A DNA stretch of 35,176 bases, from positions 1 to 35,176 of IMG/VR virus record IMGVR_UViG_3300016265_000590; one strand, written 5' to 3'. A program made the position numbers and the translations under genes. Position 1 is the first letter of the stretch; each line of letters opens with the position of its first letter. This DNA is from a virus. Its lineage: Duplodnaviria > Caudoviricetes. Positions 17,246-29,855 of this stretch are shown here, piece by piece. The notes under the pieces were generated by a model. That model was not told the origin of the DNA. It was given only the letters and a program-made list of their open reading frames with translations, and searched no databases.

Positions 17246-17308
17246 GCCGGGCGGCGGGTTGAGTCGTGGGTTTTCATCCTTTCCCCGCGACTCCCCGCCT
17301 GCTCGGCT
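17245..17308 (+). other. Long hairpin between convergent genes (terminator or structured RNA)
   Basis: Stems 17245-52/17301-08, 17253-58/17294-99 and 17261-70/17284-93; loop TTTTCATCCTTTC. Confidence 0.65.
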
Positions 17309-18218
17309 ACCTTGGCTTTCCTGGCCAGCCGAGATCCAGCGGCGGCAGTGCCGCCGTGCTGTCTGTATCACTCGGGCATATCGCTGGATCTACATAGACC
17401 TGCTGAAGTTTCGGGTCGCTGTGGTCGAGCAGCTGCGTGGCTGCGGCCCGTCCGCCGGCCAGGGCGGCGTATGAGGCTGCCGTTCTGCGAAGCCCGTGAA
17501 AGCCACGGTATTTGACGCCAGCCGATTTGCACAAACACTTCAGGCTTGCCCACTGGCTGCGACTGCGGCGGTCCCACGGCCATACCAGTTCGTGATCCTC
17601 GCGGCGGTGCTGGGCCAGCATGGCCGCCAGTTCCGGTGTTATCTGCCTTTGGATGTCCCTGGTTGCCCCTTTGCGGCTCTCGCCACGAAATATGACCTGA
17701 CGCCCGGCTAGATCGACATCGCCCCACCTGAGCGACGTAGTGGCCTCGTACCGCTCTCCGGTGCAGTAAATCGTGTAGATGAGCGTGGCCCACCACCACG
17801 ACGCCGGCAGGCCGTCGATGTACCCGATGCGGTGCCGGCACCGCCGCACCAGGGCGGCCACATCGTCAGCCGTGTAGGCCCGGCCAGTGGGCAACCGCTT
17901 CGGCACCTTGATCTTCGGAAGTTCCGGGAACTCGGCCGCCAGCCGCTTGCGGGCTGCGTAAGTCCAGAACGCCTGGATCATCACCTTGTCTTTGCATACG
18001 GAAGCCGGGCTCGGCCGCCGACCTTTCCAGCCTGGCGTTTCGGCTCGCCACCGCAGATACCTCGCTATCACCAAATCATCGAGATCTTTGACCGTCGCCT
18101 CGCGTCCAAGGAAAAGCTCGAGCCGATCCACGAGCATTCCGTAGAGGGCGACCGTCTTGCCCTTGAGCCCCCGTAACAGAGCGTAACGCTCAACCAGTTC
18201 TCGCAACGTCATGGCCAT
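17307..18218 (-). CDS. int: Tyrosine recombinase (phage integrase)
   Basis: Catalytic R (TGER), K (SRKG), HGLRR, LLDH and Y (QVY); start ATG at 18218 or 18212. Confidence 0.92.
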   Translation of the reverse strand: MAMTLRELVERYALLRGLKGKTVALYGMLVDRLELFLGREATVKDLDDLVIARYLRWRAETPGWKGRRPSPASVCKDKVMIQAFWTYAARKRLAAEFPELPKIKVPKRLPTGRAYTADDVAALVRRCRHRIGYIDGLPASWWWATLIYTIYCTGERYEATTSLRWGDVDLAGRQVIFRGESRKGATRDIQRQITPELAAMLAQHRREDHELVWPWDRRSRSQWASLKCLCKSAGVKYRGFHGLRRTAASYAALAGGRAAATQLLDHSDPKLQQVYVDPAICPSDTDSTAALPPLDLGWPGKPR

Positions 18219-18277
18219 GGCTGATGATCCCCGGTACGTGAACGGCTGTCCATGCCCCGTACATACTATACAACCCC

Positions 18278-18297
18278 TCGACTCCCGCCGCCTCCAC
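18278..18297 (+). other. attP core resembling the 3' end of tmRNA (ssrA)
   Basis: TCGACTCCCGCCGCCTCCAC matches a T-loop, T-stem and acceptor 3' strand ending UCCA (Ala G3-U70 identity); adjacent to int. Confidence 0.7.
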
Positions 18298-18387
18298 TCG
18301 ACATCTCGTACACCACTGTACGCCGAACGGGCCCGGCAGAGCAATCTGCCGGATTCCGGCGGCGGCAGTGGGGTGCGTGGTGGCGGT

Positions 18388-18415
18388 TTGACCAACTACC
18401 GTTCCGAAGTAGTAT
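18388..18415 (+). promoter_or_regulatory. Sigma70-like promoter TTGACC-N16-TAGTAT, probably leaderless
   Basis: ATG 18422 lies 7 nt after the -10 box; inverted repeat ACTAC..GTAGT overlaps the spacer and -10. Confidence 0.6.
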
Positions 18416-23989: not shown

Positions 23990-24210
23990 CCGACACGACA
24001 ACGCAGCCACCGCTAACTGCCAAGCAGCTGGCCGTGCTTGAGTTCATCAGAGCCAACACGCAGGCCGCCTCACCGACAAGCCGGGAGATTGCAAGGCACT
24101 TTGGGTTCGCCAGCCCACATGCCGTCACGGTGCACCTAAAGGCACTGGAGCGAAAAGGGTTTGTGCGTCGTATCCCAGGCCGCAGCCGCAACATTGAGGT
24201 GATCGCATGA
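23986..24210 (+). CDS. Stand-alone LexA-like DNA-binding domain
   Basis: LTAKQLAVLEFI...PTSREIARHFGFASPHAVTVHLKALERKGFVRRIPGRSRNI; no peptidase domain. Confidence 0.85.
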   Translation: MTDTTTQPPLTAKQLAVLEFIRANTQAASPTSREIARHFGFASPHAVTVHLKALERKGFVRRIPGRSRNIEVIA

Positions 24211-24497
24211 GTACGCACGAGATTGTCGAATACCTCCGTGGTCTAGCCGAGGCCACCGCAACAGTTGCCAACGCCGCCGACACGGGCCGCGTGAGCAAGG
24301 CCCGGCTCAACATGCAGGCGAGCGTGCTGCTTGAGGCGTGCGACTCGCTGCTCAAGGCCGACGCCGAGTGCACGCAGCTGCGTGAGCGGCTCGTGCGGCA
24401 GGCTTGCTGGTTCGAGCAGTTCGAGGCGGCGACGCAGCCGAAGAGCTGGCCGCTGCTTGAGGACGACGACTGCGACGATCCGGGGGTGGCACTGTGA
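24207..24497 (+). CDS. Hypothetical protein
   Basis: Coupled ORF. Confidence 0.6.
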   Translation: MSTHEIVEYLRGLAEATATVANAADTGRVSKARLNMQASVLLEACDSLLKADAECTQLRERLVRQACWFEQFEAATQPKSWPLLEDDDCDDPGVAL

Positions 24498-24742
24498 ACA
24501 TCACCGACTTCGTCTGGGTTTGCATTGGTGAGTTCTTGCTTGCGGCGACGTTCGCCATGGGCATTTTGGTTGGTGCATCTCTGAAGCCACGAAAGGAATC
24601 GAACGATGGCAACAGCTACGAAGGAACGAGCGGCAGGCGTGCGGATCTTGGCTGGTACTCTGCTCCGAGCGGTGCAGGACGTGTCGAGGGTGGTGCACGC
24701 CAGGGGGCCGAAACCCATTTTGTCCAACGTTCGCATCGGTGA
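24494..24742 (+). CDS. Small membrane protein
   Basis: N-terminal hydrophobic helix; 3' half overlaps the clamp gene. Confidence 0.45.
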   Translation: MNITDFVWVCIGEFLLAATFAMGILVGASLKPRKESNDGNSYEGTSGRRADLGWYSAPSGAGRVEGGARQGAETHFVQRSHR

Positions 24743-25712
24743 TGGGCTCATCACTGGCACGGATCTAGAGATCCGCATTGATCGCCAGATCGATGAGCAC
24801 TGCGAGCCGTTTTTGCTGCCGGCCGATAGGTTGCTCGCCATCCTGCGGGCTTGCCGAGCCGATGACGAAGTCACGCTCACGCCGAGCGGCACGAGCGTCA
24901 AGGTGAAAGCCGGCCGTGGCTCGTGGACGCTTCCGACGGAGGACGTGGCTGAGTATCCGACGTGGGAGGCAGCCGACGCGAAGCCCGTCTGCCGGCTGCC
25001 GGCCGATCAGTTCTGCCGTGCAGTGCACGCCGTCGAGTACGCGACCGACAAGGAGAGCAGCCGCTACGCACTGGGTGCGGTGCTGATCGACGTGACTGGT
25101 GGCGATCCTACGTTTGTCGGCACCGATGGCCGGCGGCTGTCGGCGGTGCAGACCGAGACAGACCAGGCGGTGGACGACTCGCAGACGCTGGTGCCGGTGA
25201 CTGCGGTACGCATTGCAGCATCACTGGCAGAGCGTAGTGAGGGCAGCGTTCAGATTGAGGCAACGTCGAGCGATGTGGTTATCACGCTGGAGGGCAGCGT
25301 GATTACGGCCCGGCTGGTGGACGGCCGCTTTCCCAGGTGGCGTGACGTGTTCCCAGAATCGTCCAGCGATCCGCACGCCGTCGATCGTGGCGAGCTCCTG
25401 GCGGCGACCAGGGCTGCGGCCGTGGTGACGAGCGAGCAGTCGAACGCCGTTACGTACGACTGGGGTGAGGCTTTGACGCTGACGGCTCGCTCAAGCGAGT
25501 ACGGCGAAAGCAAGGTTCGGTGCGACGTGACTGAGGCTGGCACGGCGTGCAAGGTGAAACTCAATCCTGGGTTTGTGCGTGACTACCTCGACGGCTTGCC
25601 GGCTGACGAGGAGCCACATGTGTCTGTGTTGACGAATGGCCCTGGCGGTGCCGTCGTTCTGACGTGCGGCGAATATCGTGGAGTCATCATGCCGCTGTCG
25701 GAGGACGCATGA
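24606..25712 (+). CDS. dnaN: DNA polymerase III beta sliding clamp
   Basis: KPILSNV, GTDLE, SRYAL, VGTDGRRL, RLVDGRFPRW and VIMPL motifs; 368 aa. Confidence 0.92.
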   Translation: MATATKERAAGVRILAGTLLRAVQDVSRVVHARGPKPILSNVRIGDGLITGTDLEIRIDRQIDEHCEPFLLPADRLLAILRACRADDEVTLTPSGTSVKVKAGRGSWTLPTEDVAEYPTWEAADAKPVCRLPADQFCRAVHAVEYATDKESSRYALGAVLIDVTGGDPTFVGTDGRRLSAVQTETDQAVDDSQTLVPVTAVRIAASLAERSEGSVQIEATSSDVVITLEGSVITARLVDGRFPRWRDVFPESSSDPHAVDRGELLAATRAAAVVTSEQSNAVTYDWGEALTLTARSSEYGESKVRCDVTEAGTACKVKLNPGFVRDYLDGLPADEEPHVSVLTNGPGGAVVLTCGEYRGVIMPLSEDA

Positions 25713-26095
25713 AAAACAGCGACGCATCGCGGAACCACACGATGGCGGATCTTGCCCTGCTGCACGAGCTCTGGGCGGCTAACCTGCCGACTTCAGAAAT
25801 CGCTGCGCGGTTTGGCGTGGTGATGAGCACCGTGACGAAGTGGGCACAGCGTTATGGGCTCCCGCGAAGGACGATCCACCCGGCAAACGAGCCGCCGCCA
25901 CCGTCGCCAGAGGACGAAGCGGCTTCGCTTGACGGGCTGGCGTTGTCGCCTTGGGTTGAGGAACGTGCTCGAGTGGTTCGCGAGCAGCACTACGCAGAGC
26001 GGCGAGCCGAGACTGAGGCCAATGCCAGGAGCAAGGCAAACTCTTGGCGTCGCGGCGAGTACCAGCCAGGCGGGGCACGGCATGTCGGGTTCTGA
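25709..26095 (+). CDS. GcrA-like HTH protein
   Basis: LHELWAANLPTSEIAARFGV..STV..WAQRYGLP. Confidence 0.6.
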   Translation: MKNSDASRNHTMADLALLHELWAANLPTSEIAARFGVVMSTVTKWAQRYGLPRRTIHPANEPPPPSPEDEAASLDGLALSPWVEERARVVREQHYAERRAETEANARSKANSWRRGEYQPGGARHVGF

Positions 26096-26110
26096 GCGGC
26101 TGGGGTGACA

Positions 26111-26167
26111 GCAGAACACGCAGGATGCAGCGGCGGCTCCGCCGTCCGCTGCATCCGCTGGTTCTAT
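26111..26167 (-). repeat. attC-like recombination site 1 (57 bp)
   Basis: Minus strand: ATAGAAC-CAGCG-GATGCAGC-GGACGGC...CCGCTGCATCC-TGCGT-GTTCTGC. Confidence 0.7.
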
Positions 26168-26196
26168 TTCGCGGAGTAGTTTAGGTGGTGCAGAAC

Positions 26197-26430
26197 ATGA
26201 GCAAGCGCGCTCAAGGCCCACGTTCGAGTCGTGGCTCCGCGATTTCACAGAAGGACAGAGATACTCTTCGCAGGCTGGATCGTGGCATCCATTGGATTGA
26301 CGCACGCTTGGAGTTGTGGGTCGTGTTTTATGATGTCAGCGAGCGAAAGCGGCTCCAAAAGCAACGGGATTCAATGGACGAGCGAAGGCGGCTACTGAGG
26401 CTGCGGATGAAGGGCGTCGGCAAGAAATAG
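26197..26430 (+). CDS. Hypothetical basic protein (cassette 1)
   Basis: AGGTGG SD; stop codon overlaps the R' box of attC 2. Confidence 0.55.
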   Translation: MSKRAQGPRSSRGSAISQKDRDTLRRLDRGIHWIDARLELWVVFYDVSERKRLQKQRDSMDERRRLLRLRMKGVGKK

Positions 26431-26515
26431 AACACGCAGGATCAGCGGCGGCGACGAGAGGACGAACCATGACGAACGACAACGAGGAGCCGTCCGCTGC
26501 ATCCGCTGGTTCTGT
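26427..26515 (-). repeat. attC-like recombination site 2 (89 bp)
   Basis: Minus strand: R'' ACAGAAC, 5-nt spacer, L'' GATGCAGC with extra base, unpaired A, variable loop, L' GCTGATC, R' GTTCTAT. Confidence 0.75.
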
Positions 26516-26762
26516 GGAGCCGGTGGCGTGGGGAGCCATTCTGAATGGCGAGTTGGACTCGGCTTTCAGGTCGCAAGCAGACGCTTTTATGTGGGCCTAC
26601 AAACGCGACGGCATTAAGATTGTCCCGCTCTACCGCCAGCCACAGGACGGCGTGGTGCGACTGCCGCCGCTAGACCCGAACGGCGCTCCCGGCTGGAACG
26701 CTGCGATAGGTGCCGTGCGCGAGGCGTTGGCGAAGGCTGGCGTGGATTGGCATACAGAGTGA
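26469..26762 (+). CDS. Hypothetical protein (cassette 2), EPVAW...PLY type
   Basis: SD GAGAGGA and ATG lie inside the attC 2 loop. Confidence 0.65.
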   Translation: MTNDNEEPSAASAGSVEPVAWGAILNGELDSAFRSQADAFMWAYKRDGIKIVPLYRQPQDGVVRLPPLDPNGAPGWNAAIGAVREALAKAGVDWHTE

Positions 26763-26786
26763 CCACAGAACGCTAAAGGAGACTTT

Positions 26787-26993
26787 ATGCAATGGATCGA
26801 AAGGACTGATCGCGAGCCATCCAAGGACGGATGGTATCTCGTTTGCGACATGGAAACGGCCCCATACCTGCCCGATCGCGCAGAGTTTGAGTCGGGCCAG
26901 TGGAGCCCGGTGGATGGCGACGAAGAGTTCGTCATCACTCACTGGATGGAACTGCCTCCGCCGCCGTTTGAGGTCAACTGGGACGATGACTGA
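26787..26993 (+). CDS. DUF551-like protein
   Basis: MQWI....P...G.YLV...ITHWMELPPPP. Confidence 0.75.
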   Translation: MQWIERTDREPSKDGWYLVCDMETAPYLPDRAEFESGQWSPVDGDEEFVITHWMELPPPPFEVNWDDD

Positions 26994-27010
26994 GCGTGCA
27001 GTTGGGGTAC

Positions 27011-27044
27011 ACAGAACCAGTGTTTATGCGGAACCTGATAACAC
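27011..27044 (-). other. attI-like site
   Basis: Minus strand GTTATCA...GCATAAA-CACTG-GTTCTGT; L-N5-R layout resembles attI1 CCCTAAA-ACAAA-GTT. Confidence 0.45.
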
Positions 27045-27122
27045 CCCGCCGCCCGGCGGAATCCTCGCCGCACGGCCGCGAGACGCGGTCGAGTGCTGCA
27101 TAACACGCCGAGCCCGTTCGGC

Positions 27123-27141
27123 TTGACTCCGTTGCCATGCT
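27123..27141 (+). promoter_or_regulatory. TTGAC-N8-CATGCT motif, probable leaderless promoter of rusA
   Basis: ATG 27148 lies 7 nt after the -10-like box; no SD. Confidence 0.5.
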
Positions 27142-27147
27142 GCGTGC

Positions 27148-27546
27148 ATGGCGATCACGTTCACCGTGCCGGGCGATCCCGTGCCGCAGCCGAGGCCGCG
27201 TGTCTCGACTCGCAGTGGCTTCGCTCGTGCGTACGTGCCGAGCAAGCACCCGGTGCACGACTACCGTGCGTCGCTCGCAGCTGCTGCCCGTGACGCCGGG
27301 CTCGGCACGACAGGCGAGCCGCTCAACGTCGTGATTGACGCAGTCTTTGTGCGGCCTAAGTCGCACCTGCGAAAGAGCGGCGTGAGAGCAGACGCCCCGA
27401 GGCTGCCACGGCCCGACGTGGACAACATCGCCAAGGCCGTGCTCGACGCCCTGCAGGACGTGATGGGCGATGACACGCTGGTTGCTCGCTTGGTGGTGGA
27501 AAAGAGCTACGGCACGGAGGCACGGACAACCGTGCGGATCTCGTGA
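27148..27546 (+). CDS. rusA: RusA-like Holliday junction resolvase
   Basis: PGDPVPQPRPR and RPDVDNIAKAVLDAL...DD motifs. Confidence 0.9.
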   Translation: MAITFTVPGDPVPQPRPRVSTRSGFARAYVPSKHPVHDYRASLAAAARDAGLGTTGEPLNVVIDAVFVRPKSHLRKSGVRADAPRLPRPDVDNIAKAVLDALQDVMGDDTLVARLVVEKSYGTEARTTVRIS

Positions 27547-28208
27547 CTGAGCCGCAGTATGCCGTGTTCAAGGACTCTGAGCCGCACCCGCTCGGCTCGA
27601 TGTCATCACATACATACGAAGTGGACGCCAAGCGGCTGACGTTTACTCTGGCCCGTTACAAGTTCGTGGCCCGTGTGCTGGCTGGCTGCGACACGGTGCT
27701 CGAGATTGGCTGCGGCGATGCCTTCGCCACTCGCATCGTTGCCCAGGCGGTTGGGCTCGTCGTTGCCACCGACTTTGATGCAGCCTTCATTGACGAGGCC
27801 CGCAGTAGGCGTCCGCACCATGCAGCGTATGTGCAGCACGACATGGTCGCCGGCCCGAAGTACGTGCCAGACAGGCTGCCCAAGGTGTTCGACGCCGCGT
27901 ACGCCTTGGACGTGCTTGAGCACATCCGGCCCGAGCGAGAAGGTGCGTTTCTTGGCAATGTAGCCATGAGCATCGGCGAGCACGGCACGTTTATCTGCGG
28001 GATGCCGTCTCTTGAGTCGCAGCGGCATGCGTCAGAGCTGAGCCGGGCCGGGCACGTCAACTGCAAGACCGAGGAAGAGTTGCGTGCCACGCTGAAGAGG
28101 TACTTTCGCAACGTGTTTATGTTCGGGATGAACGACGAAGTCGTGCACACCGGATTCGGGCCTATGTGCCACTACCGTCTGGCCGTATGCACGGGGGCCA
28201 AGCTGTGA
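27543..28208 (+). CDS. Class I SAM-dependent methyltransferase
   Basis: ARYKF, VLEIGCGD and LDVLEHI motifs. Confidence 0.85.
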   Translation: MTEPQYAVFKDSEPHPLGSMSSHTYEVDAKRLTFTLARYKFVARVLAGCDTVLEIGCGDAFATRIVAQAVGLVVATDFDAAFIDEARSRRPHHAAYVQHDMVAGPKYVPDRLPKVFDAAYALDVLEHIRPEREGAFLGNVAMSIGEHGTFICGMPSLESQRHASELSRAGHVNCKTEEELRATLKRYFRNVFMFGMNDEVVHTGFGPMCHYRLAVCTGAKL

Positions 28209-28972
28209 GCGTGAGCGTTGTGATCCCGACGCACAACCGTGCGAGCAATCTGGGGCGTGCCGTCGTGTCGGCGGCATCGCAGTCGCCGCTCGAGGTGCTG
28301 GTGATTGACGACGCCAGCACGGATGACACGCAGGGCATCGTTGAGCAGCTGCAGGACATTTACCCGTGCGTGAAGTATCAGCGACGAGACACAAAGGCTT
28401 GTGATTGGCAGCAGTCAGCCTCTGAGTCTTACGCCTGGCTCATGGGCTCGCACGTCATCTGCATGGGTGCCGATGACAAACTCGAGCACGGCGTGATCGA
28501 CAGTGTCGGACGGCATGAGGATGCCGCTGTCGTTTTCCATGACTACTGGGTTTGCGACACCTCTGGGCACGTGACTGGGGCAGTCACCAACGGTTATGAG
28601 GCAGTGATTGAGTTCACGCCACGCCAGATGCGGGCGAGGCTTCGTGAGCACCCGCACGCTACTGAGACTGGCATAGGCTCTGCTATCCGACGCGACAGGC
28701 TTCTGTGGCTAAACAGTCTCGCCTGGTGGCGAATGGGGCCGTGGAGTGACGCTGTCGGGTACGCAGCGGTTGCAGCACTTGGTGGCTGCGTGTTCGTGCC
28801 CGGTGCCGGTGCAACATTCACCGATGATTCAGGCGGCTACGGGCACCAGCACCGCAGCGGCCACCGAGCGAGCGAGTACCACCAAGCCGTGCGGAAGTTT
28901 CTGCATGACGCAGGCGTGCCTTTCAGCGTAGCCAACGCAATCTGCCTGAAACGTGGGGTGCCCTATGGCTAA
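28205..28972 (+). CDS. Glycosyltransferase family 2
   Basis: VSVVIPTHNR, VIDDASTDDT and GADD motifs. Confidence 0.88.
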   Translation: MSVSVVIPTHNRASNLGRAVVSAASQSPLEVLVIDDASTDDTQGIVEQLQDIYPCVKYQRRDTKACDWQQSASESYAWLMGSHVICMGADDKLEHGVIDSVGRHEDAAVVFHDYWVCDTSGHVTGAVTNGYEAVIEFTPRQMRARLREHPHATETGIGSAIRRDRLLWLNSLAWWRMGPWSDAVGYAAVAALGGCVFVPGAGATFTDDSGGYGHQHRSGHRASEYHQAVRKFLHDAGVPFSVANAICLKRGVPYG

Positions 28973-29855
28973 CCTGCCGGCGCAGTTGTGGCTGCCGCAT
29001 CCTGCATTTGCAGAGTTATTCGACGAGCGGCACGCTGCGGGCCTCGAGCGGCTCCGAAACGCATCAGTTGCCATTGTCGGGCTTGCCAGAAACTGCGGCC
29101 CGCAGTTGGCTGCAAATCTGGAGCGTGTCGAATCGCTGGCTGGCCTGTGCGGTTCGTGGCAGTTGCATGTCGAGTCCAACGACTGCACGGATGACACGCT
29201 GGACGTACTGGCGGCATTTGCCAGACGGCACAGCCAAGCCACGTTTCATTACCAGATGCTCAACCGCCCGCACTTGCCGGGCGAGTTTGGCGGCCGTCGC
29301 ACGATTGCGTTGGCTGAATACCGCGACGCCTGCCAGCGTTGGGTGCGAGCCTGCGATGGCGACTCTGACTACGTCGTTGTCATCGACTTCGACGCCTGGG
29401 GCGGCTGGAACCACCAAGGCGTGCTGAACGGGTTCGGGTGGCTGGTTGAGATGCCAGGTGCCTACGGCATGGCGAGCACGTCGCTCTTTCAGTACGACTT
29501 CGGCCAAGGCCCGCAGTGGTGCCATTACGATCTCTGGGCAATGCGTGGGCTCGGCCAGCCCGATTGCTACTTCGACGCCTACCAAAACGGATACGGCGGG
29601 TTCGGCTTCTCGTGGCTGCCGCCTGTCGGCTCGCCGCCTGCGATCGTCGCCAGTGCTTTCGGCGGCATGACGATCTACCGCACCGATGCGTATCTGGCTG
29701 GCACGTACGACGGCACCGCAGACTGCGAGCACGTCCCGTTTCACGCGAGCATTGCCGAGGCAACTGGACAGCATCTGTATCTCAACCCGTCACAACGGAT
29801 GCTCATGAGCTGGATACCGGAGCCATGCGCGGCAACACCGCAACCATCAGCCTGA
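28965..29855 (+). CDS. Glycosyltransferase, CAP59/GT69-like
   Basis: IVGLARNC, ESNDCTDDT, LAEYRD, VIDFD, SAFGG and CEHVPFH..LYLNP motifs. Confidence 0.7.
   Translation: MANLPAQLWLPHPAFAELFDERHAAGLERLRNASVAIVGLARNCGPQLAANLERVESLAGLCGSWQLHVESNDCTDDTLDVLAAFARRHSQATFHYQMLNRPHLPGEFGGRRTIALAEYRDACQRWVRACDGDSDYVVVIDFDAWGGWNHQGVLNGFGWLVEMPGAYGMASTSLFQYDFGQGPQWCHYDLWAMRGLGQPDCYFDAYQNGYGGFGFSWLPPVGSPPAIVASAFGGMTIYRTDAYLAGTYDGTADCEHVPFHASIAEATGQHLYLNPSQRMLMSWIPEPCAATPQPSA

Follow-up and report, generated by a model that had tools for sequence, protein, structure and literature searches.

Clusters of attC sites lacking an integron integrase (CALINs) are known from phages: Qi et al. 2023 (PMC9892861) described 17 of them and tested six attC sites, five of which were recombined by IntI1. 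CALINs have also been described as hitchers that are mobilised in trans (PMC11389934). The subject of the present analysis is an integron-like cassette array in a stretch of 35,176 nucleotides (hereafter the window), which is a whole virus record (IMG/VR record IMGVR_UViG_3300016265_000590; Duplodnaviria, Caudoviricetes) with a CheckV completeness of 88%. The array lies between a sliding-clamp gene and a rusA-like resolvase gene, and its attI-like site and two attC sites are antisense to the genes they accompany. The sequence comparisons presented below make the following reading quite probable: a temperate phage lineage has an integron platform without integrase fixed in its early operon, and the integron integrase (IntI) of a Planctomycete host recombines the platform in trans.

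The phage CALINs of PMC9892861 resemble the window in having attC clusters without intI and in carrying DNA methyltransferases among their cargo. A cryptic Shewanella prophage from the same report has an attI before its CALIN but, unlike the window phage, possesses its own intI. The attC cluster of phage TJE1 (L239:240-1470) is sense to its genes, in contrast to that of the window, and its cargo is likewise phage-early-like. The available portions of PMC9892861 report no antisense cargo class, no lineage-fixed attI locus and no cassette turnover between relatives, and the string "Planctomyc" has no match in the accessible part of the supplement. A literature search with most subscription journals outside its scope found no paper on antisense, attI-bearing, integrase-less phage arrays.

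Trans-mobilised CALINs (PMC11389934), as well as single attC sites lacking integron integrases (SALINs) and attG insertion (bioRxiv 10.1101/2022.09.11.507474), share with the phage array the reliance of cassettes on a distant IntI. The phage array differs from them in that a true attI is kept and reused at one locus, with no scattered attG insertion and no decay following intI loss. The chromosomal integrons of freshwater Planctomycetes share more with it: their attC sites (88-90 bp) belong to one family with those of the phages and have L boxes in common with them, and the attI core is similar. Unlike the phage arrays, they contain intI and sense cargo, often toxin-antitoxin genes; the phage arrays lack intI, carry antisense phage cargo, have more uniform spacers and include additional short attC sites (48-58 bp). 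Planctomycete intI is co-directional with its array, as in the "inverted integrase" arrangement (PMC4889954); nothing on intI orientation appears in the accessible parts of PMC3108266 and PMC2426708. On sequence grounds, the window array is best classified as a CALIN with a putatively functioning attI and reversed cargo, integron-like rather than a complete integron. It has the two clustered attC sites without a nearby intI that suffice for a CALIN, and it lacks the linked intI with an IntI-specific insertion, and the cargo sense to attC with the cassette promoter (Pc) beside attI, that characterise a complete integron.

Sites and cassettes of the window

The array comprises the following elements, listed from the attI side (ORF, open reading frame).

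27030..27104, minus strand: upstream part of attI with two extra GTTAT boxes (27036-27042 and 27098-27104)
27011..27029, minus strand: attI core, L box GCATAAA, five nucleotides, R box GTTCTGT; crossover G|TT at 27017/27016
26771..27016, minus strand: unit C, 246 bp, first position; no attC body, but an R' box, a ribosome-binding site and a start codon
26787..26993, plus strand: ORF C, 68 aa, DUF551 (PF04448)
26765..26771, minus strand: lone R' box, start of cassette B
26433..26770, minus strand: cassette B, 338 bp
26469..26762, plus strand: ORF B, 97 aa, no family; starts within attC2
26427..26515, minus strand: attC2, 89 bp, canonical, both extrahelical bases; 52.7 bits
26117..26432, minus strand: cassette A, 316 bp
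26197..26430, plus strand: ORF A, 77 aa (81 aa from GTG 26185), no family; stop codon in the attC2 R' box
26111..26167, minus strand: attC1, 57 bp, final site of the array, second extrahelical base only; 35.6 bits

A first-pass annotation made from the letters of the window had described a minus-strand attI-like site, a lone R' box and attC sites of 89 and 57 bp, and all of the boxes, lengths, matches and coordinates that it gave were found in place. Both attC sites form the imperfect inverted repeat R''(RYYYAAC)-5 nt-L''...L'-6 nt-R'(GTTRRRY), in which the bases beyond the AAC/GTT triplets follow a Planctomycete variant and not RYYY/RRRY. Both read R''-N5-GATGCAGC-GGAC, a layout that parallels the aadA7 attC in Table S3 of PMC9892861.

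The annotation had proposed an attC covariance model as a check. We built our own model from 16 attC sites on seven Planctomycete contigs bearing an intI or much of one; 97% of its stem cells are paired and nine of its 14 pairs show changes on both sides. It scores attC2 and attC1 at 52.7 and 35.6 bits on the predicted minus strand, compared with 7.1-7.2 for the plus-strand attC scores and 11.8 for the next-best place in the 35 kb, and it detects sites in 15 of the 17 near-complete relatives. The L' box of attC1 has one extra base, and as the resulting eight bases pair completely with L'', the first extrahelical base is lost. The extra base is present in the probable source run and absent from related copies in three other runs. 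Loss of a single extrahelical base need not block recombination and can weaken strand choice (PMC5027507). Folding z-scores are about -6 for attC1 and about -2.2 for attC2; the attI stretch folds no better than its shuffles (z of -0.2 to -0.5), consistent with a double-stranded site. An extra R-like box (26190-26196) immediately precedes the ATG of ORF A.

The attI core is identical at 15 of 16 bases to a host attI that lies beside intI (L158), and among relatives its platform side is conserved and the sequence past G|TT is variable. The two extra GTTAT boxes are likely accessory integrase-binding repeats, a role modelled on DR1 and DR2 of attI1 (PMC8946536).

Crossover-to-crossover units in the window measure 316, 338 and 246 bp. 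The first-pass annotation had called the first two circular cassettes, and homologues support the boundaries of both. Cassette A has a homologue (92% protein identity) that occupies the first position in the array of another phage (L186, L187) and ends at the same R box; in L186, and for other cassettes in the relatives, movement is of whole units whose ends are G|TT crossovers. When L186:1421-1471 is compared with window 26111-26167, the body of cassette A is kept, the attC interior differs and identity begins at R'', so that attC sites seem to have been swapped between cassettes. Another attI type precedes a different resolvase-like gene at L186:1728-1800, with the same cassette pool.

For cassette B, the attC2 R'' fits the lone R' box over nine bases versus eight for the attI R box within the window alone, and the homologues decide. 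The three closest homologues of ORF B all end at the lone-R' box; in two of them a full attC comes next, in the third only part of one. The 338-bp cassette is therefore right, the lone R' box is likely the remnant of a deleted attC, and unit C has likely lost its attC. Delta-attI-type cassettes, in which an attI fragment replaces the attC, are described from class 1 and 2 integrons (PMC12901181). The R box and GCATAAA box of unit C are 12 nt apart, not 5, and unit C thus fits a deleted attC at least as well as the delta-attI type. Locus L053 does have a unit of this type: two attI cores, at L053:7962 and L053:8245, are 283 bp apart, and one unit terminates in an attI core instead of an attC.

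The annotation also regarded the ORFs as typical phage accessory genes. This description suits ORF C and the cargo of relatives, which includes DNA methyltransferases, a Mom-like modifier, PAPS-reductase-like proteins and HNH proteins; it does not extend to ORFs A and B, which match no family and for which the best ESM Atlas scores (0.80 and 0.84) are leads only. A search with ORF C among metagenome contigs returned one weak relative, without attC. The start codon of ORF B lies in the attC2 loop (opposite strand), and the reading frame passes through the L''/R'' arm of attC2. ORF B-like proteins (L096, L079, L181-L183) are mosaics: the N-terminus is encoded by the attC, the middle varies, and different C-termini are attached at a short motif that they share.

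Cassette turnover among relatives

Relatives of the locus comprised the best 80 of 97 clamp relatives together with pattern hits. The distance from clamp to rusA in the 55 loci with both flanks ranges from 319 to 4823 bp and correlates with the number of attC sites (rho 0.85). Sites are present in 29 of these loci (up to six) and an attI motif in 26. Throughout the 80 clamp loci, the attC sites are antisense to the operon (83/83, none sense), in keeping with the antisense arrangement noted in the annotation, and three Markov controls of equal length contained no attC. A stricter detector placed 68 of 68 sites between the clamp and either rusA or the end of the locus. L'' and L' covary in the phage attC as well as in the host set, and the extrahelical bases and spacer lengths are kept.

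The annotation had taken as a key signature that the R'' of each cassette matches the R' at its own far end better than the neighbouring R', as crossover of circular cassettes at G|TT would leave behind. The signature recurs in the relatives. The set examined consisted of 136 distinct cassettes from the window and L001-L133, with exact duplicates merged and units >1500 bp excluded. In 117 of them the four bases that follow GTT agree with the cassette's own R'', and in 18 with the neighbour's (discordant cases 110 versus 8, p 5e-24; reached by 0 of 10,000 permutations). Cassettes directly after the attI motif match their own R'' in 42 of 46 cases and the neighbour's in four, which identifies the motif as the site of cassette entry. 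L and R boxes, a G|TT crossover and the entry of new cassettes, the attributes of an attI, are accordingly all present.

Changes in gene content between clamp and rusA break at G|TT, as the annotation had predicted. Loci L009 and L010, which are distinguished by whole cassettes, share 824 identical bp beginning with the crossover G; at one and the same junction, L005 has an attI and L003 an attC; and the closest relative, L001, departs from the window 2 nt beyond the attC1 crossover. Contigs from two runs diverge from the window at 26771 and 27017, the latter contig being from another run. Rank differs in five of nine shared cassette pairs. After removal of 13 duplicate loci and two stray attI hits, 57 of 203 alignment ends fell no more than 10 nt from a crossover, where random placement gave a mean of 5.6 and a maximum of 14. 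Comparison of the relatives shows gain, loss and re-ranking of cassettes at G|TT. In one contig, sequence like the end of ORF B runs on into sequence like the start of attC2; a free cassette circle could have such a join, and so could the linear array of a relative. The array of L002 is deleted: at L002:7536-7580, the far end of the attI region is joined to an attC arm, apparently through a short motif common to both.

These data also bear on the proposal that the sites are former integron sites and that the array is today remodelled chiefly through homologous or RecT-type exchange, for which the attC repeats provide homology at the boundaries. The phage encodes a RecT-like protein, cassette A of L186 has another attC interior with identity from R'' on, the ORF B homologues are mosaic, and 146 of the 203 alignment ends are off the crossovers. 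However, attI and attC share only the core triplet, and yet first cassettes match their own R'' at attI; extrahelical bases and spacer lengths are conserved; and phage-type cassettes are found at a host attI (see below). We therefore consider this explanation unlikely.

The orientation of the cargo was assessed with family scans, as orientation by the longest ORF is noisy for host cassettes (13 sense, 11 antisense). PHROG matches in 72 phage cassettes fell on 21 of 72 antisense ORFs and on 0 of 66 sense ORFs, and sense ORFs of at least 40 aa in 117 phage cassettes had no Pfam match. In the 25 host cassettes, a Pfam match was obtained for 19 of 48 sense ORFs, many of them toxin-antitoxin genes, and for 0 of 41 antisense ORFs. 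The antisense stop codon lies no more than 9 nt from the crossover in 121 of the 136 phage cassettes.

A ribosome-binding motif followed by ATG is present on the antisense strand of 73 of 94 long attC sites, in contrast to one of 42 short ones, and ORF B starts in this manner. Such starts, together with stable plus-strand hairpins, are what would be expected if the attC hairpins were retained for a role in the RNA (in translation starts, processing or termination), with recombination a relic. This proposal does not account for the match of cassettes to their own R'', for breaks at G|TT, for the conservation of attI or for the minus-strand polarity of the covariance model scores, and no terminator-type call was obtained at the attC sites; it is extremely improbable. 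A sigma-70-type promoter was not called in 25600-27300, and an Rfam search of 24000-29000 gave a sole match at chance level (E 4.7).

Recombinase and probable host

The phage is temperate and of freshwater origin, and the runs that contain the array are chiefly freshwater, aquatic, sediment and wastewater metagenomes. PHROGs matches in the window include terminase, portal, capsid, tail, RecT-like protein, methyltransferase, replication initiator, sliding clamp, helix-turn-helix (HTH) protein, rusA and a tyrosine integrase. The genes that flank the array, and the integrase gene, are as follows.

24606-25712, plus strand: sliding-clamp gene, upstream flank, early operon
25709-26095, plus strand: HTH gene, upstream flank, early operon; the array begins after it
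27148..27546, plus strand: rusA-like resolvase gene, downstream flank
17307..18395, minus strand: phage tyrosine integrase gene, 7.7 kb from the array; probably a bystander

Between array and rusA (27122-27150), a TTGAC motif is followed by a hexamer 6 nt before the rusA start codon and recurs in relatives L027 and L186; it is possibly a leaderless promoter directed away from the array. Downstream of rusA (27543-29855), a block of methyltransferase and glycosyltransferase-like genes differs between relatives. The large terminase gene (452-2115) is split over two overlapping frames, 452-1483 and 1366-2115.

An assembly artefact was considered and rejected, because Logan contigs from the probable source run cover 25300-26458 and 26488-27800 with zero letter differences and the layout is common to many independent contigs. 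The run comparison covered contigs from four of the 20 runs that contain part of the window; RNA runs contained at most 0.06 of its words. A blastn search of the array against 50,697 GenBank phage records gave zero matches.

The annotation held that the phage lacks IntI and that its integrase lacks the IntI-specific insertion, and both points are borne out. The IntI profile TIGR02249 has no match in the window, and the phage integrase has gaps at the position of the insertion when aligned with four host IntI. No IntI above the TIGR02249 cut-off was detected in 48 related phage records, including the 17 that are at least 90% complete. Each of these 17 carries one ordinary tyrosine recombinase, as would be required if the phage integrase, or some other phage protein, recombined the att sites. 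The window enzyme, however, has neither the insertion nor a profile match, it is encoded 7.7 kb away in the usual lysogeny position, and the att sites match host integron sites; tyrosine recombinases close to attC have elsewhere been judged not to be IntI (PMC4889954). A phage recombinase is thus a very unlikely agent.

A search with the phage attC pattern matched 23 genome contigs, 18 of which are Planctomycetota by title. IntI is present in seven of the 10 tested Planctomycetota genomes from this search and in 42 of 121 genomes (TIGR02249) in the family of one Pirellulales bin, the likely host family. Bin G002 contains IntI together with a 2.6-kb contig that bears a phage-type clamp (60% identical). 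Two short contigs in bins of Planctomycete families, L197 (G002:C195) and L236 (G193:C403), have a phage-type clamp with adjoining early genes and are possible prophage fragments. An array on a 1.3-kb contig of a Methylocystis bin (L143) was not used as host evidence.

The attI matrix trained on the phages matches just downstream of intI in five of the first 12 host loci. Of the 13 further intI loci with an attI-matrix peak up to 400 nt downstream (see below), eight have a downstream attC in reach, and in all eight the box agrees with the first R'' at seven of seven bases. The host locus L237 (G158:C92) is a housekeeping contig (ettA-like ABC-F, rhodanese) that carries intI, attI and two cassettes (109-821), whose attC sites are 98% identical to phage sites and whose ORFs are antisense. 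The first of these cassettes contains an antisense DUF551 gene that is 48% identical to the first cassette of phage L050. The attI, 226 nt past intI, was missed by the matrix and identified visually through its resemblance to L157 and L167. L237, one case in a metagenome bin, is the closest to direct evidence that a host IntI takes up phage-type cassettes.

A number of observations weigh against recombination in trans by a Planctomycete IntI, or limit what may be concluded about it. Presence and absence cannot clear the phage enzyme, since a tyrosine recombinase occurs in 17 of 17 near-complete records. The first host genomes were chosen by a phage-derived attC pattern, and likeness was thereby favoured. 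Among 27 further intI loci, 13 have attI-matrix peaks 241-400 nt downstream, all co-directional with intI, a count that needs post hoc widening to 400 nt, as the preset window of 150-330 nt caught 4 of 20; the other 14 have no good match. The probable host is a Planctomycete on the basis of metagenome-assembled genome bins and site likeness. In the window itself, attC1 is without one extrahelical base and unit C is without an attC. Neither attC nor attI is present in 21 of the 55 loci with both flanks, and the counts are not independent, as the phages are related. Finally, homology-based exchange also acts, given the 146 alignment ends away from crossovers and the differing attC interior of cassette A.

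Proposed mechanism and biological meaning

If the array is recombined by a Planctomycete IntI, the host enzyme would act in trans on the prophage or on the replicating phage, that is, during lysogeny or replication. Cassettes would be excised by attC x attC recombination and then inserted into the phage attI. Judging from the gene order, the cassette genes would be read from the upstream phage early transcript, so that transcription would reach the most recent cassette last, opposite to the gradient from Pc. A long attC may at the same time supply the ribosome-binding site, the start codon and the N-terminus for its own gene. Provided that replication begins within the replication gene on the left, the attC bottom strand would be the lagging-strand template, a position that favours attC folding and excision (PMC8946536). 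The GC skew of the window did not give the position of the origin.

Tentatively, a Planctomycete phage lineage may have domesticated the host integron as a shuffler of accessory genes, drawing on antisense cassettes of its own that are exchanged with host arrays, although we would put this at somewhat less than an even chance. If this is true, the reversed polarity would act as a filter: host toxin-antitoxin and defence cassettes would be silent in the phage attI, and phage cassettes in a host attI would be silent from Pc. With a fork moving rightward, the attC strand that recombines would also be the lagging-strand template, which would lead to higher turnover, and the phages would be a workshop for making new cassettes.

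Integrons are viewed as bacterial tools and, in recent work, as repositories of anti-phage genes, but in the present case only the cis sites are retained, and by a phage lineage. The array would provide natural attC sites that double as translation starts and a gene route between phage and host arrays. The host enzyme is apparently used to vary phage early genes, which would constitute a site-specific source of phage genome mosaicism.
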